From: Dehalococcoidia bacterium
GTDB taxonomy: Bacteria; Chloroflexota; Dehalococcoidia; Bin125
Reading direction: 5' to 3'
Assembly (NCBI GenBank): GCA_963662615.2
Contig: CAXXSR010000001.1
Coordinates: forward strand, 832,001 to 896,000
Length of the DNA: 64,000 nucleotides
Shown: positions 15,720-41,120 of the stretch, piece by piece
Layout of the letters: each line of letters starts with the position of its first letter
Numbering within the stretch: position 1 is the stretch's first letter
The notes under the pieces: model-generated
Seen by the model: the letters and a program-made list of their open reading frames with translations, nothing else
The model's database searches: none
What the model was told of the DNA's origin: nothing
Translations under genes and position numbers: made by a program

Positions 15720-16655
15720 TCAGGCGTGAGGGATGTGAGGAAGTCGTAGGTGCGGGCGCGAGCGTCGCGTGAGGGATGTGAGGAAGTCGTAGGTGCGGGC
15801 GCGAGCGTCGCGGTCGGTGGGGATGGCGATGAAGTCGCTGACGCCGATGTCGCGGAGGCGCTGCAACTGTCGCACGACTTCGGCCTCGTCGCCGATGGGC
15901 GAGACGTCGGCGGGGCTTTTGGCGCCGGATCCTTCGATGACGCGTTGGTAGGAGGGGAGGTCGGTGTAAAAGCCGTAAGCGTGGTCGATGCGCTCGCGGC
16001 CGGCGTCGGCGTCGGCGGCGACGATGACGGGGACCGAGGCGATGATGCGGGGTTGGGGGCGCCCGGCGGCCTCGGCGGCGCGGGTGATGGTGGGCAGGAC
16101 CGTGCCCTCCAGGTAGGAGGGGCCGGCCATCCAAGTGACGGTGCCGTCGGCGAGGCGGCCGGCGAGGGCGAGCATCTGCGGGCCGAGGGCGGCGAGGATC
16201 ACGGGCGGCGGTTGGGCGTCGGGCACGCGCAGCTGGGCGTCGATGCGGAAGAGGTCGCCTTTGTAGTCGACGTGCTCGCCGCGCAGCAGCGGTCGCAGGA
16301 CTTCCAGGTACTCGCGCATGTAGCGGACGGGCTTGGCGAAGTCGAGGCCGAGCGAGTCCTCGATGATGCGGCGATGGCTGAGGCCGAGGCCGAGGACGAA
16401 GCGGTTGCCGCTGGCGGCGGCCGCCGTGAGCGCCTGTTGGGCCATGACGAGAGGGTGGCGCGTGTAGACGGGCACCACGTCGACGCCGAGCTCGATGCGG
16501 GAGGTGACGGCGCCGGCGGCGGCGATGAGGGTCATGGTGTCGTGGTCGTTGATGCTGGGGAGCCAGGCGCCGGTGAAGCCGTCCTCTTCGAGCTGCCGGT
16601 AGCGGGCGAGCTTGTCGGCGAAGGTGCGGGCGATGGGGGAGGTGGCGAGTCGCAT
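15720..16655 (-). CDS. LLM-class (probably F420-dependent) oxidoreductase
   Basis: T..IELG..V.P.YTRHP, RF.LGLGLSH, P...MREYL, AALGP.ML.LAG..ADG motifs; C-terminus altered by a duplication. Confidence 0.92.
   Translation of the reverse strand: MRLATSPIARTFADKLARYRQLEEDGFTGAWLPSINDHDTMTLIAAAGAVTSRIELGVDVVPVYTRHPLVMAQQALTAAAASGNRFVLGLGLSHRRIIEDSLGLDFAKPVRYMREYLEVLRPLLRGEHVDYKGDLFRIDAQLRVPDAQPPPVILAALGPQMLALAGRLADGTVTWMAGPSYLEGTVLPTITRAAEAAGRPQPRIIASVPVIVAADADAGRERIDHAYGFYTDLPSYQRVIEGSGAKSPADVSPIGDEAEVVRQLQRLRDIGVSDFIAIPTDRDARARTYDFLTSLTRRSRPHLRLPHIPHA
15727..15812. repeat. Perfect 43-bp tandem duplication at 3' end of LLM gene
   Basis: TGAGGGATGTGAGGAAGTCGTAGGTGCGGGCGCGAGCGTCGCG at 15727-15769 and 15770-15812. 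Confidence 0.97.
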
Positions 16656-16748
16656 GGTGGGTCTCCGTGGCGGTGGTGGGCGAGGGGACGGTAGGGGGCA
16701 GGGGAGAGGCGGTCAATGCGGTCGCGGGGCGGGGGCGTGAATTGCCGG

Positions 16749-17028
16749 CCGTTCGCCCTTCGGCGAGGTCAGGGGGAACGGGTTGAAAGGCTCAGGGGGA
16801 ACGGAGGGACCTCACCCATCCTCCCCCTCTCCATCACAAGGCGATGGAGAGGGGGAGGATGGGGGTTCGCCCTTCGACCGTTCGTCCTTCCCGCGGGGAA
16901 GGATCAGGACAGGCAGGTTCAGGGTGAGCGGGTTTAGAAGGGGGGCTCCTTCCCAGGGGGAAGGACAGGTCAGGGTGAGCGGGGGGCCTGTGGCCCGCTC
17001 GCCCTTCGACAGGCTCAGGGTGAGCGGG
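16749..17028. repeat. Cluster of REP-like palindromes (CG(T/C)TCGCCCTTCGAC..GCTCAGGGxGA(A/G)CGG family) around a 21-bp-stem hairpin
   Basis: Copies at about 16749-16781, 16865-16932, 16944-16984, 16994-17028; inverted repeat CCCATCCTCCCCCTCTCCATC / GATGGAGAGGGGGAGGATGGG at 16815-16863. Confidence 0.85.
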
Positions 17029-17033
17029 CGGGG

Positions 17034-17396
17034 CTAGTCGGCGGGGAGGGCGGCTTTGGCTTGGGCGGCGATGGCGGCGAAGGCGTCGGGGTCGCGGATG
17101 GCGAGGTCGGCGAGGACTTTGCGGTCGATCTCGATCCGGCCCAGGCGCAGGCCGTGGATGAAGGTGCTGTAGCTGAGGCCGTGGAGGCGGGCGGCGGCGT
17201 TGATGCGCTGGATCCAGAGGCGGCGGAAGTCGGCTTTGCGGTCGCGGCGGTCGCGATAGGCGTAGGCGAGCGCGTGTACGCGTGACTCGGCCGCGCGCCG
17301 GAAGATGCGGTGGCGAAGGCCGTGATGCCCTTTGGTCTGGGCGATTATCTTTTTGTGCCGGCGGCGCAGTTTGGTGCCGCGCCTCACACGGGTCAC
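17034..17396 (-). CDS. rplT: 50S ribosomal protein L20
   Basis: TRVRRG...[32 protein letters not shown]; GTG start after GGGAGGT. Confidence 0.98.
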
Positions 17397-17403
17397 GTCG
17401 TTC

Positions 17404-17490
17404 TTACCTCCCTAGGAGAGACGAGTGTGGCATCGGCGGGGGCCGCTTGTGCCGGCGGCGCAGCTTGGGGCCGCGCCTTACGCGGGTCAT
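17404..17490 (-). CDS. 28-aa mini-ORF duplicating the L20 N-terminus ([28 protein letters not shown])
   Basis: ATG at 17490 with AGGAGG/GGAG upstream, TAA at 17404-17406; first 15 codons match rplT at 14/15 residues. Confidence 0.6.
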
Positions 17491-17552
17491 GGTGGTCTCC
17501 GTCCTCCTGCTGGGCGACGCGACCGCGCTTGTCGCTCCCAGCCGCGCGACCG

Positions 17553-17756
17553 CTAGGAGCCGTAGGGTAGCAGCCGCTTGATCGTCTTTTGCTGGCGCTT
17601 GGACTTGACCGGATGCATGTCGCCCATGGCGAAGAGCTGGCGCTTGTTCTTTTTGGACTTGTTGTGGCCGCGGTGGCCCTTCATCCGCAGCACCTTGCCG
17701 GTGCCGGTGATCTTGAAGCGCTTTTTGGCGCCGCTGTGTGATTTCATCTTTGGCAT
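17553..17756 (-). CDS. rpmI: 50S ribosomal protein L35
   Basis: [21 protein letters not shown] ... LLPY. Confidence 0.98.
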
Positions 17757-17772
17757 CAGCGTATCTTTGACA

Positions 17773-18360
17773 TCAGACTGCGGCTTGCTCGGAGCCGGCC
17801 GGCTCGGCCTCGCTCTCCTTGGCCAGCGCCGCCGCCTTCACCTTGTCGGCCGTGACGATCACGCTCATAAAGCGCCCTTCCATGGAGATGGACTTCTCCA
17901 CGAGCAGCGGGATCCCCTCTTCCTCCAGGCGCTCCATCATGGCCGTGATGCGATCTTTGCCGATCTGCGGGTGCGTGATCTCGCGTCCGCGGAACATCAC
18001 GGTGATCTTGACCTTGTCGCCTTCGCGCAGGAGCTTGGCGGCGGTGCGCGTCTTGAAGTCGATATCGTGCTTGCCGATGTTCGGCTTCATCTTCACTTCG
18101 CGCAGCTCGACGCGGCTCTGCTTCTTCCGTCCTTCGTTCTCGCGCTTGGCTTGCTCGTACTTGAACTTGCCGTAGTCCAGGATGCGCGCGACGGGGGGTT
18201 GCGCGGTGGGGGCGACCTCGACCAGGTCCAGGCCTTGTTCCTCCGCCAGTCGCAGCGCCGCCGCCGTGGGCATGACGCCGAGTTGCTCGCTGCCCTGGCC
18301 GATCACGCGGACTTCGGGCACTCGGATTCGCTCGTTGATGCGATGCTCACGGCTTGCCAG
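17773..18360 (-). CDS. infC: Translation initiation factor IF-3 (non-canonical CTG start proposed)
   Basis: [14 protein letters not shown] lies upstream of the called GTG at 18321; [21 protein letters not shown]; GGAGGA 5 nt before in-frame CTG at 18360. Confidence 0.95.
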
Positions 18361-18429
18361 AGACGTCCTCCGTTTTCATGGCGGCGCGCGCAGCGGGCGG
18401 CCCCGCCTGCCAGGCGCCATCAGCGTCTC

Positions 18430-18459
18430 ATCGTAGCAATCGTACGAAAACGGGGTCAA
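18430..18459 (-). promoter_or_regulatory. Sigma70-type promoter of infC-rpmI-rplT
   Basis: TTGACC, 18-nt spacer, TG-C-TACGAT (extended -10) on the minus strand. Confidence 0.7.
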
Positions 18460-18465
18460 TGGCAC

Positions 18466-18990
18466 TCACGACCGCTCCTCCTGGACCGCTAGGACCAGCA
18501 GGAGGGCGCCCGGCTCCACAGCGTCGTCCGGTTCGACGTGCACGCTCTTGACGCTGCCGCTCAGCGGCGATCGGATTTCGTTGTTCATTTTCATGGCGAC
18601 GATCACGATCAGGGGGTCGCCCTGGACGACGCGATCGCCCTCCGCGACCAGCAGCTCGACGATGGCGCCGGCCATGGGCGCCGTGATCGCGAGCTCGCGC
18701 CCGGCGGTGGCCAGGCCCTCGGCGGCGCCCGGCACGCCGCCCCGCTGCACGGTCACCATGTGCGTGTCCGGGCCCACCACGACCTTGAGGCCGCCGCGCT
18801 CGCGTGCAATCACGACCTCAATGGCCCGTCCATCCACCAGCAGCCGGTAGAGGTTGCCGTCGCCCACCCGCTCGAGGCGGACGGCGTGCTCGCGTCCGCC
18901 GACGACCATCTTGAAGGCGCCGTGGGGAGCGGGCACGATCTCGATCTGTTGGTTCGTCGATCCGACGGCTAGAGAGAGCCTCGGCGCCAT
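18466..18990 (-). CDS. Biotin carboxyl carrier domain protein
   Basis: APMAG..V...V.EGD.V..GDPL, AMKM biotinylation motif; N-terminal BT-like domain. Confidence 0.92.
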   Translation of the reverse strand: MAPRLSLAVGSTNQQIEIVPAPHGAFKMVVGGREHAVRLERVGDGNLYRLLVDGRAIEVVIARERGGLKVVVGPDTHMVTVQRGGVPGAAEGLATAGRELAITAPMAGAIVELLVAEGDRVVQGDPLIVIVAMKMNNEIRSPLSGSVKSVHVEPDDAVEPGALLLVLAVQEERS

Positions 18991-20510
18991 CCCTGCTCCA
19001 GGGCGCGGCGGTGGCGCGCCTGTCTGCTCCAGCCCCCCTGCCCGGCGCCGTTGCGCGCACCAGGGTCAAGGGAGCGCTCGCCCTGCTCGCGGAGGAAGGC
19101 GGCGGCGGCGAGGGCGGCCGTCTGGGCGGTCTGGGGCCGCGCCTCCGGGTGCATGGTAAAGGACTCCTGCACGGAGTCCGTGTGGAACTGCCCGGCAATG
19201 AACTTGGGGTCGTCCAGGAGCGCCAGGTGAAAAGGGATGCTGGTGGAGATGCCGACGATGGTGAACTCGCGGAGGGCGCGGATCATGCGGCGGCGGCAGT
19301 GCTCGCGGTCGCGGCCCCAGACGGCGAGCTTCGCCAGGAGGGAGTCGTAGTGGACGCTGACCTCCATGCCGGGGTAGAGCATGCTATCGACGCGGACGCC
19401 GGGTCCGGCGGGCTCGCGGAAGTGCGAGACCGTGCCCACGCTGGGCAGGAAGTTGCTGTAGGGGTCCTCCGCCACAATGCGGCACTCCATGGCCCAGCCT
19501 TTGGGAGGCCGCTGCGCGGCCGTGTAGCCGAGCGGCTCGCCCGCCGCCAGGCGCAGCTGCTCCGCCACCAGGTCCATGTCACGGACCAGCTCCGTGACGG
19601 GATGCTCCACTTGCAGGCGGCTGTTCATCTCCAAGAAGGTGAAGTGATCCTGATCGGTGACGAGGAACTCCACGGTGCCGGCGTTGACGTAATGACTGGC
19701 GCGGGCCACGGCCTGGGCCGCCTCCTCCATCCGTTCCCGGAGCGCCGGCGTGAGGGCGGGTGACGGGCTTTCCTCCAGCAGTTTTTGACGACGCCGCTGG
19801 ATGGAGCACTCGCGCTCACCCAGCGTCACCACGTCGCCGTGCTGGTCGGCCAGCAGCTGAATCTCAATGTGGCGCGCGGGCCGCAGCCATTTCTCAATGA
19901 AGATGGCGCCGTCGCCGAAGGAGAGCGCGGCCTCGCGCCGGGCGCTGGCCATGGCCCGGGCCAGCTGCTCTTCGTGATGGGCGACGCGGATGCCCTTGCC
20001 GCCGCCGCCGCCGGCCGGTTTGACCAGCAGCGGATAGCCGATGCGGGCCGCGACGCGAGTCGCGTCACGGACGTCGGTGACCGGATCGATGGAGCCCGGG
20101 ATGATCGGCACCCCGGCGTCCTGGGCGGCGCGGCGCGCAGCGATCTTGTCGCCCGTGATGGCCAGGGCCTCGGGCGGCGGGCCCACGAAAGTCAAGCCGG
20201 CGTCGCGACAGGCGCGGGCGAAGGCGGCGTTTTCGGCCAGGAAGCCGTAGCCGGGGTGGACGGCCTGGGCGCCGGAGCGGCGGGCGACGTCCAGGATGCG
20301 CTCAATGTTGAGATAGCTGTCGGCCGCCGGGGCGGGCCCCAGGAGATGCGCCTCATCGGCGTAGCGGACGTGCGGGAGGGCGGCGTCGGCATCGGAATAG
20401 ACGGCGACGGTGCGGATGCCGAGGTCGCGGGCGCTGCGGATGATGCGGAGGGCAATCTCGCCGCGGTTGGCGACGAGGAGGGCGTTGAAGAGTGGGGTCA
20501 CCGTTGGCAT
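18969..20510 (-). CDS. accC: Biotin carboxylase subunit of an acyl-CoA carboxylase
   Basis: LVANRGEIA, HPGYGFLAEN, GGGGKG, ERECSIQRR, FLEMNSRLQVEHPVTE, YDSLLAK. Confidence 0.93.
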   Translation of the reverse strand: MPTVTPLFNALLVANRGEIALRIIRSARDLGIRTVAVYSDADAALPHVRYADEAHLLGPAPAADSYLNIERILDVARRSGAQAVHPGYGFLAENAAFARACRDAGLTFVGPPPEALAITGDKIAARRAAQDAGVPIIPGSIDPVTDVRDATRVAARIGYPLLVKPAGGGGGKGIRVAHHEEQLARAMASARREAALSFGDGAIFIEKWLRPARHIEIQLLADQHGDVVTLGERECSIQRRRQKLLEESPSPALTPALRERMEEAAQAVARASHYVNAGTVEFLVTDQDHFTFLEMNSRLQVEHPVTELVRDMDLVAEQLRLAAGEPLGYTAAQRPPKGWAMECRIVAEDPYSNFLPSVGTVSHFREPAGPGVRVDSMLYPGMEVSVHYDSLLAKLAVWGRDREHCRRRMIRALREFTIVGISTSIPFHLALLDDPKFIAGQFHTDSVQESFTMHPEARPQTAQTAALAAAAFLREQGERSLDPGARNGAGQGGWSRQARHRRALEQGWRRGSL

Positions 20511-40200: not shown

Positions 40201-41120
40201 AGGAGCCGCCCGGCGCCGCGCCTGCGGCGGGCGGCTCGGGGGCCCTGCCGGCGGCGACGCAGTCCACGCCGACGGCGGGCGGCGGCAACGGTGGTGGTCA
40301 GGAGCCGGGTGGCCAGGAGCCGGCGTCGGGCGGGGAGGAGCCGTCGTTGGCGGAGCTGCGCGAGGGCATCGAGACGCTGCGCGGCCGCCTGCGCTGGCTG
40401 GGCGCCGTCAACCCGGACGCAGCCGGGGAGTTCCAGGAGGTGCGCGAGCGCTACGACTATCTCAGCGGCCAGATCGCCGACCTGGAGGGGGCGGAGCAGC
40501 GGCTGCTGACGGCGGAGGCCGAATTGGCGGGCCTGATTCGGGAGCGCTTCGAGAGCGCCTTCAAGGCCGTGGACGGACAGTTTCGGCACTACTTCCAGCA
40601 GATGTTCGGCGGCGGCAACGCCCGCCTGGCCCTGAGCGACGAGGGGGACTGGGAGAACAGCGGCGTGGAGATCGCGGCGCAGCCGCCGGGCAAGCGGCTG
40701 GACAACCTGAGCATGCTCTCGGGCGGCGAGCGCTCGCTCACGGCGATCGCCCTGCTCTTCGCCATGCTGACCGTCAAGCCGGCGCCGTTCTGCGTGCTGG
40801 ACGAGGTCGACGCGGCGCTGGACGAGGTCAACGTGGGCCGCTTCGTGGGGGCGCTGCAGGCGCTGGCCGCGCGCACGCAGTTCGTCATCATCACCCACAA
40901 CCGCCGCACCATTGAGCAGGCCGACTCCATCTACGGCATCACCATGGGCGACGATTCGGTGAGCCGGGTGCTGTCGGTGCGCCTGGCCGACTTCGACGTG
41001 GAGGCCGACTCCGACAGGGAGGGCGACTCCGACAGGGAGGGCGGCCGCGACGTGGAGGGCGACCGCGACGTGGAGGGCGGCCGCGACGTGGAGGGCGAGC
41101 CGGCGGCGCCCGCGCGCTAG
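37272..41120 (+). CDS. smc: Chromosome segregation protein SMC
   Basis: GPNGSGKSN Walker A, coiled coils, hinge domain, LSGGE signature, LDEVDAALD, ITH. Confidence 0.97.
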   Translation: MHFKRLEIQGYKAFATRTVFDIDPGITAVVGPNGSGKSNIMDALRWVMGETANRHMRANRLEEVIFTGSQQRAPTGMAEVRVVLNNDDGWLPLDPGEVSVTRRVHRSGDSEFLINDKPVRLREIQQLFSRGGLGAGSYALMGQGLVEEVLRLKPEERRGLIEEVADVRRHRRQMEEARRRRQESHENLERVRLLVEEIEPRRRTLERQAKRALQHADLTAELRAALRRFYGQEGRRLQAELAARAGARGERRVARDRVAQEVADAEAALAAWNSAISEARAVQERAEEERRRRGARLRELEHERALARQGDELLQRRLEELRSDVAALTEEAESAGAPAAPDPGDVDVAARDQALATARDAHQRAQAALDAIDGEQAALRRRKAEADERLRRLAVVAAEEEQRLKAVEDERSALSTAANERAERMTPLRRRLEAAAVAAGEAAARLAASGPDANAAGERRDELAQRLYGAGARLRELEAGRAERDRRLTRARDRLQMLKELQAESEGMQQGLRALFGSRGVPHAGEPTGIPGVVGVIRHLVRAPRGLEQAIEAALQDYLDAVIFESATDAVGTIEALIAERAGRLVALPLDEIRPRSPLVLPPERHVIGVAARLVKCHSRYRDLVNTLLGRTIVVEDIDTARALLKRGLGAVVTRDGHLLRPNGAIAGGRIAEAGAFTRENELQSLPAQIEQLERDLAESAAVAEPRAELERLERELQAAERTSEETAAARRQAQEAAAAHEADAVRMRGELAALEAEGEQAARRLQSLTAEAATLEAAGERRENERAEMEAAGPDAAVRPDEAAPAERRAAQARLVGEAAVRLSVLEGEEGALREALRGREAALARLRQQGQARRAQLERVEAERVELAATLARLQRELAAARDALAAAAEEGAEEGTLARLAAQEKGRREAVGGAQRSQIGAERALVVAEAAHEETEGACARLREQMRSDEFAIDAEGRVVTGGGARVPAFMAREEPPGAAPAAGGSGALPAATQSTPTAGGGNGGGQEPGGQEPASGGEEPSLAELREGIETLRGRLRWLGAVNPDAAGEFQEVRERYDYLSGQIADLEGAEQRLLTAEAELAGLIRERFESAFKAVDGQFRHYFQQMFGGGNARLALSDEGDWENSGVEIAAQPPGKRLDNLSMLSGGERSLTAIALLFAMLTVKPAPFCVLDEVDAALDEVNVGRFVGALQALAARTQFVIITHNRRTIEQADSIYGITMGDDSVSRVLSVRLADFDVEADSDREGDSDREGGRDVEGDRDVEGGRDVEGEPAAPAR
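40996..41098 (+). repeat. 18-bp degenerate tandem repeat in SMC C-terminal tail
   Basis: Encodes EADSDR EGDSDR EGGRDV EGDRDV EGGRDV EG. Confidence 0.85.

Follow-up and report, generated by a model that had tools for sequence, protein, structure and literature searches.

The interval between the ribosomal protein genes rpmI (L35) and rplT (L20) of this Dehalococcoidia genome contains a 28-codon upstream open reading frame (uORF) that begins with a second copy of the start of rplT. We consider it moderately probable that a lineage-specific partial duplication of the rplT 5′ end produced this arrangement and that the uORF relays ribosomes into rplT through termination-reinitiation. The duplication itself was observed in independent assemblies, whereas the relay is predicted from the geometry of the two reading frames. 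The analysis covers a window of 64,000 nucleotides (nt), by which we mean the whole stretch of DNA examined, together with the source genome, its relatives, and public sequencing runs.

A copy of the rplT start between rpmI and rplT

The source genome has a size of 2.66 Mb and a G+C content of 68%, and the tail of its 16S rRNA is the canonical anti-Shine-Dalgarno (anti-SD) sequence. The nearest named relatives of its L20, by protein comparison, are Chloroflexota/Dehalococcoidia MAGs. The genes infC, rpmI, and rplT lie on the minus strand, and the gap between rpmI and rplT amounts to 156 nt, with the uORF located inside it. The features are as follows.

infC (IF3), 17773..18321, minus strand: ORF from GTG 18321; Pfam IF3_N and IF3_C
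rpmI (L35), 17553..17756, minus strand: Pfam PF01632, E 2.8e-14; stop codon TAG at 17555-17553
rpmI-to-uORF spacer, 17491..17552, minus strand: 62 nt, of the ancestral type; AGGAGG (17508-17503) and GGAG (17500-17497) before the ATG
uORF (mini-ORF), 17404..17490, minus strand: 28 codons; ATG at 17490-17488, stop codon TAA at 17406-17404
Repeat copy 1, 17447..17498, minus strand: 8 nt before the start codon and, with 17446, codons 1 to 15 (ATG, Pro8, AAG15)
Three consecutive proline codons (PPP) of the uORF, 17434..17442, minus strand: read from the sequence
Inter-copy stretch of 42 nt, 17405..17446, minus strand: uORF codons 16 to 28 and the first two bases of its stop codon
rplT SD sequence GGGAGG, 17407..17412, minus strand: identical with the last two sense codons of the uORF
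Repeat copy 2, 17353..17404, minus strand: 8 nt before the start codon and, with 17352, rplT codons 1 to 15 (GTG, Thr8, AAA15)
rplT (L20), 17034..17396, minus strand: 120 aa from GTG 17396; PF00453, E 9.1e-41, residues 3 to 109

The L20 sequence that represents the cluster of this protein (98%) has the same N terminus and length as the rplT product. In infC, the match of the called ORF (GTG 18321) to IF3_N begins at profile position 8, and the gene thus probably starts further upstream, at a non-canonical codon. A sigma-70-like promoter match was also found upstream of infC, at 18459-18430 on the minus strand.

Comparison of the first 15 codons of the uORF with those of rplT revealed identity at 39 of 45 bases. 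The differences (uORF/rplT) comprised the start codon (ATG/GTG), four synonymous changes (CGC/CGT, GTA/GTG, AAG/AAA, and AAG/AAA), and a single non-synonymous change (CCC/ACC, Pro8/Thr8), exactly as counted by a first-pass annotation of this DNA. A repeat search returned the two copies as a direct repeat of 52 nt with 85% identity and a period of 94 nt (17447-17498 and 17353-17404), extending 8 nt 5′ of both start codons. Recognizable repetition is therefore confined to 52 to 53 nt of the 94 nt of extra DNA, and the uORF frame is offset from the rplT frame by one base (94 = 3 × 31 + 1).

Beyond codon 15, the uORF (codons 16 to 28, including the PPP at 17442-17434 within RPPPMP) is unrelated to L20, and its 28-aa peptide gave no Pfam match. 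The 42-nt stretch between the copies consists of a pyrimidine run followed by the rplT SD, in the arrangement GGGAGG-N10-GTG. The TAA sits between that SD and the GTG, being followed by 7 nt and then the rplT start codon, and no further stop interrupts the uORF frame up to the end of rplT. The same annotation had described an ORF with its own SD and ATG, a PPP tract after the L20-like part, and terminal codons GGG AGG TAA that form the rplT SD and end 7 nt before the GTG in a different frame; the sequence, the ORF list, and the coordinates agree with this description throughout.

The repeat is far above chance and is not an assembly artefact

To place the repeat against other rplT loci, two scans were run. 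The ungapped scan looked for an upstream copy of a locus's own first 45 nt and covered the 187 rplT loci whose upstream DNA was usable; the score was 39/45 for the window and at most 29/45 for the other 186 loci. In the gapped local alignment, the window scored 33.0, compared with a mean of 8.96 (SD, 1.39) and a maximum of 13.5 among 187 other distinct loci. These data indicated that the repeat is far above chance.

Since the element is known from metagenome-type assemblies only, an assembly or sequencing artefact was considered. The stretch is present in 20 public runs belonging to seven studies, and in four runs, one from each of four studies, 17355-17499 is covered by contigs that show 0 to 3 differences each over their full lengths (X7 record 12, 17191-18037, 1 difference; X9 record 28, 17190-18329, 3 differences; X10 record 3, 17355-17499, 0 differences; X8 records 20 and 21, 0 and 2 differences). 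None of the variants listed falls inside 17404-17490, with one of the three differences of X9 record 28 unplaced, and no joint deleting the 94 nt is among those listed for the four-run contigs, a kind of sequence from which rare variants are dropped. Moreover, the two copies differ from each other at 6 of 45 bases. With the duplication carried by independent assemblies from four studies, the artefact reading was dropped as practically negligible. At one to three differences per contig, these within-species contigs are uninformative on selection.

The element is confined to one isolated lineage

GTDB representatives include no other species of the genus. Among the 28 relatives in which both genes were found, the rpmI-rplT spacer measures 2 to 73 nt in 27 and 120 nt in one, as opposed to 156 nt here, and none of the 28 spacers contains the mini-ORF. 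The search of all 65 genomes of the family, with a query made up of the spacer, uORF, and start of rplT, gave no match to query positions 1 to 193 at the rplT locus in the 64 other genomes. Matches at the rplT locus were obtained in 26 of these 64, all at query positions 194 to 261 (rplT codons 10 onward), and three short matches inside positions 1 to 193 fell elsewhere in those genomes.

Protein and contig searches gave a similar picture of isolation. Among 5.8 billion proteins, the 98% cluster representative was followed by a protein with only 79% identity to this L20, and in searches of genome contigs and metagenome contigs, identity reached at most 63% and 62%, respectively. One divergent contig, about 84% identical (X9 record 27), has 108 nt fewer between the rpmI and rplT anchors, which corresponds to a 48-nt spacer resembling that of the closest genus; this contig probably derives from a relative of the closest-genus kind rather than from a genus-mate. 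Within the reach of these data, only one isolated lineage, at the level of a species, has the element. This restriction favors the suggestion of a scar and speaks against a leader peptide, for which there is no conservation outside the species.

The upstream copy appears to be the older one

By alignment, the upstream copy occupies the position at which relatives start rplT. In the relative G004, rpmI, the spacer, and the rplT start are colinear with query positions 2 to 311, the match ending at codon 15 of copy 1; it overlaps the rplT match (query positions 390 to 684) by 16 nt in G004, which gives the 94-nt offset. The distance from rpmI to the uORF ATG, 62 nt, is within the range of the relatives' spacers. 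Three of the six differences between the copies could be polarized: the start codon is ATG in 26 of 28 relatives, proline stands at residue 8 in 21 of 27 in-register loci as well as in all 8 of the nearest proteins, and codon 15 is AAG in 27 of 27 in-register loci. Copy 1 (ATG, Pro8, AAG15) has the common state of the relatives in all three cases and copy 2 (GTG, Thr8, AAA15) in none, which marks copy 1 as a fossil of the old start. Of the two readings offered by the first-pass annotation, the acquisition of a new 5′ end by rplT, with a scar left behind, is therefore the one that is supported, the element being lineage-restricted and colinear with relatives, with a relative-like copy 1.

At four of the six differences, a G or C in copy 1 corresponds to an A or T in rplT (CGT, ACC, AAA, and AAA), and one of these four, AAA15, is polarizable. 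We infer that the GC-to-AT changes in copy 2 represent later tuning of the new start. Among the first 18 rplT codons (17340-17396), those that end in A/T or are A/T-rich (CGT, AAA, AAA, then AAA AAG ATA ATC) are enriched, in a genome with 68% G+C. An A/T-rich start of this kind would fit selection for an open initiation region.

A predicted relay of ribosomes into rplT

In the reading that we favor, a partial duplication of the rplT 5′ end would have added 94 nt between rpmI and rplT. Since the upstream copy keeps the SD and the ATG at the old start, ribosomes should initiate there, at the uORF; they would then read 15 L20-like codons and 13 unrelated ones and terminate at the TAA, where they would cover the rplT SD and start codon. 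With a terminating ribosome sitting on these signals, rplT would most likely be translated largely by termination-reinitiation, and the old initiation region, with any coupling to rpmI or L20 feedback, would still set the flux into rplT. With the uORF frame otherwise open throughout rplT, it is the TAA that would keep the arrangement viable: in its absence, ribosomes from the old start would be predicted to continue, out of frame, over the new start and on through all of rplT. A stop is present in about 22% of random 16-codon windows of this genome, and the TAA need not have been selected.

We infer translation of the uORF and a dependence of rplT on this translation. The uORF has its own SD and start codon, and the stop-to-start distance of +7 nt lies within the range of a few to about 25 nt, in which coupling is reported to be efficient (PMC12548453). 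The proposal of a translational-coupling device made in the first-pass annotation is thus plausible from geometry only (strong SD, ATG, and TAA at +7 nt), while nothing positive was obtained for its alternative form, a selected leader or decoy. In predicted ensembles of the free RNA, the rplT SD and GTG had unpaired probabilities of 0.44 and 0.47, respectively, fold z-scores were unexceptional (−1.74 and −1.36), and no clear sequestration of the rplT start was seen. Being only partly paired, these signals present no evident structural need for coupling.

Other points weigh against this reading. The good SD of rplT could allow the gene to initiate independently, and copy 1 lacks any polarizable change, which is odd for a neutral remnant; with a synonymous divergence (pS) of 0.32 between the copies, far above within-species diversity, the event would be old. 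A related explanation is that the uORF is a neutral scar, rplT initiating on its own and uORF translation being weak or incidental with little effect on L20 output. The workable distance of the rplT SD, the lack of strong sequestration at the SD and start, the ordinary folds described above, and the absence of conservation outside the species are all in line with it. Set against these, the uORF carries the stronger initiation signals (AGGAGG, GGAG, and ATG versus GGGAGG and GTG), and from the geometry, a ribosome at the TAA would cover the rplT SD and start, such that some interaction, positive or negative, is hard to avoid. We regard a scar without a relay as unlikely, although it would not greatly surprise us.

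Origin of the duplication and of the inter-copy stretch

The inter-copy DNA was compared with several possible sources. Global and local alignments with the upstream spacer and with rplT codons 16 onward gave P values of 0.22 to 0.70 (2000 mononucleotide shuffles), and local alignments evaluated with 1500 random genome segments gave P values of 0.21 for the rest of rplT plus downstream DNA and 0.52 for rpmI and infC. Start-anchored alignment against 2878 to 2882 SD-bearing genome sites as controls yielded P values of 0.12, 0.024, 0.089, and 0.26 for 20, 28, 35, and 49 nt, respectively, the best of which (P = 0.024; 2879 controls) concerns a 28-nt stretch including the SD and is post hoc. Among the matches listed by blastn-short for the whole genome, there was no other genomic copy, the best match being 14 nt long with an E value of 0.3.

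A simple head-to-tail tandem duplication of 94 nt would leave copies alike over the full period, and these are alike over 52 to 53 nt only. With no demonstrable origin of the inter-copy stretch in either flank, a clean 94-nt tandem duplication is not demonstrated. Either an imperfect duplication with filler DNA or an old one whose free parts have decayed may account for the event; the import of an allele with one illegitimate junction is less likely. In the latter scenario, an rplT 5′ end with a short spacer and SD was recombined in from a close relative, and the single illegitimate junction left the resident first 15 codons stranded upstream. It would account for 42 nt that resemble neither flank, for a copy divergence of 13% next to 1 to 3 differences per 568- to 1140-nt contig within the species, and for the three sites (start codon, residue 8, and codon 15) at which copy 2 departs from the family consensus. 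Yet T2, R5, R6, and L10, which are unusual relative to relatives, are common to both copies, so that the donor would have to be a genus-mate, and no such donor is known, the next L20 being 79% identical. Import is also less parsimonious than internal duplication, and we judge it most unlikely.

Selection, proline codons, mimicry, and recoding

Selection on the uORF was evaluated with the single species available. Between the copies, pS was 0.32 as given above and the non-synonymous divergence (pN) was 0.034, yielding a pN/pS of 0.10. A null model in which both copies are neutral gave P = 0.028, whereas under the proper null (copy 1 neutral and copy 2 accepting synonymous changes only), the probability of at most one non-synonymous change in five was 0.135. 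The comparison of copy with copy, whose synonymous excess falls short of significance under this null, therefore does not demonstrate constraint on the uORF. If the Pro8/Thr8 change is assigned to copy 2, the probability of zero non-synonymous change in copy 1 is roughly 0.03 by hand arithmetic on site counts, a figure that is suggestive only of selection on copy 1 and is equally explained by rapid tuning of the working copy after a more recent event.

These values bear on the possibility that the uORF is a selected leader, either a PPP-dependent sensor of EF-P or proline that gates rplT or a mimic of the L20 N terminus or operator that feeds back, as a basic peptide or as RNA, on L20 synthesis or ribosome assembly. 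The low pN/pS and the placement of all three polarizable differences on copy 2, which makes copy 1 look frozen, are what such a leader would show, and PPP occurs in only 2995 of 163068 (1.8%) stop-free 13-codon windows of the genome. Against this weigh the P value of 0.135, the failure to find the element in the 64 other genomes of the family, the presence of an EF-P gene in the genome, and the fact that both PPP and mimicry were noticed post hoc. Furthermore, at three of the four synonymous differences (one polarized), copy 1 has G/C where copy 2 has A/T, a pattern better matched by tuning of the new start than by constraint on copy 1. We therefore consider a selected leader quite unlikely. 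Similar doubt attaches to the view that the uORF is a maintained relay and sensor rather than a passive scar: that the proline run ties rplT flux to EF-P or proline seems very unlikely to us, and the companion claim that the old initiation region and the 15 codons are selected as the control input of the operon, through L35 coupling or L20 feedback, has an equally small chance of being right. On the same view, an abundant basic peptide copying the tip of the rRNA-threading extension of L20 may also act on ribosome assembly.

Searches for regulatory RNA were negative. Rfam at E values of up to 10 returned no ribosomal leader and no L20 leader in 16600-19000, the best likeness by sequence to the organism's own 23S rRNA was 10 nt with an E value of 0.6, which is the chance level, and no minus-strand terminator-like site was found in 16600-18700. 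Neither alternative RNA hairpins nor a terminator under ribosome control was seen in the predicted folds and the terminator scan. For the two devices proposed in the first-pass annotation, an EF-P-dependent stall at PPP and an L20 decoy peptide, nothing positive thus emerged: EF-P is present, the folds are unexceptional, and neither device has conservation outside the species.

A recoding mechanism, in which L20 would be made from the upstream ATG by programmed bypass of the T4 gene 60 type or by a frameshift across the 94 nt, was rejected. Repeated codons do flank a non-coding gap here, and the proline run could pause ribosomes. In the T4 gene 60 bypass, the take-off and landing codons match and a stop immediately follows take-off; here these codons differ (AAG versus AAA), and the take-off codon is followed by CGG instead of a stop. 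In addition, shifted read-through is closed by a TAG located 18 nt before the rplT GTG and in frame with it, and the product would carry a duplicated N terminus. With bypass and frameshift both disfavored by the sequence, we hold recoding to be hardly credible.

Comparison with known systems

In the infC-rpmI-rplT operon of Escherichia coli, as presented in the available text of PMC12548453, L20 synthesis depends on ribosomes translating the ORF just upstream; that ORF is rpmI, located at +52 nt, and it acts by RNA unfolding. The arrangement described here shares the operon and the upstream-ORF logic with this account. It differs in that the upstream ORF is a duplication-born one of 28 codons at +7 nt, which ends inside the spacer between SD and start codon, and in that no inhibitory structure is predicted.

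Bacterial uORFs acting by coupling or occlusion are documented, and the output of the main gene follows uORF translation, in the accessible parts of PMC13285730 and PMC5574718. Like those uORFs, the present one is a short ORF with its own SD that ends at or near the main start. Those in the accessible parts lie in 5′ leaders, are not copies of the start of the main gene, and are not reported there as duplication products, whereas the present one is located within an operon, in front of a ribosomal protein gene that is essential.

L20-binding operators, namely the rpmI pseudoknot and stem-loop of E. coli and the L20 leader of Bacillus, have mRNA that mimics the L20 site of 23S rRNA, as far as the consulted sections of PMC1888825 and PMC1865079 describe them. 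The operon and the idea of mimicry are the same. On this account, however, those operators are rRNA-mimicking RNA structures, while the element here is a DNA repeat of a coding start.

Leaders with proline codons or arrest peptides, such as the mgt leaders of Salmonella, sense translation capacity. As in mgt-type leaders, a short ORF with consecutive prolines precedes a gene, but alternative hairpins, a terminator, and conservation are missing here.

A search of the literature on partial duplication, uORFs, coupling, and rplT leader peptides, at the level of titles and abstracts, found no uORF copied from the start of its own gene, and the one paper returned that contained both rplT and uORF was a coupling review. 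What sets this case apart is the origin of a uORF as a copy of the gene's own start and its place inside a ribosomal protein operon. The present evidence reveals no new regulatory principle, and the element is seen in one species only. Should the relay prove true, the locus would amount to a natural experiment in which an essential, tightly balanced ribosomal protein gene whose own start had been disrupted survived, thanks to a stop codon positioned between the SD and the start codon that are now in use, and it would offer a concrete route from partial duplication to bacterial uORFs and coupled gene pairs. If the uORF were a maintained relay and sensor, a ribosomal protein gene would be controlled via a translated copy of its own start. 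A compact construct of 190 nt would test termination-reinitiation at +7 nt with the SD buried in the last uORF codons.

Other repeats in the window and the genome

Directly downstream of rplT, at 16750-17030, about three copies of an REP-like intergenic element with a common end motif were observed, and a 31-nt probe from it (17000-17030) had 11 copies in the genome at up to 4 mismatches. Summed contig depth in the metagenome runs spikes at this element, reaching up to 6386 at 17002-17052 (X8), which indicates that it is widespread in those samples. A long, nearly perfect hairpin at 16797-16880 is probably part of the same downstream repeat cluster; its sub-threshold Rfam matches to microRNA families on both strands are spurious (best score, 35.7 bits versus a gathering score of 60).

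A genome-wide scan (at least 40 nt, at least 80% identity, and spacing of 40 to 400) yielded 165 short-range direct-repeat pairs, mostly in clustered regions. The pairs concentrate at about 397-401, 521-522, 1461-1485, and 1842-1843 kb, with periods such as 132, 174, and 348 nt, and the clusters may represent genes for repeat proteins or intergenic elements in arrays. Filtering for duplicated gene starts left 56 rows, in which clustered repeat regions were dominant, and the filter missed the rplT case itself. An isolated direct repeat of 50 nt with 80% identity and 54-nt spacing was observed at 40994-41043 of the window (contig positions 872994-873043).
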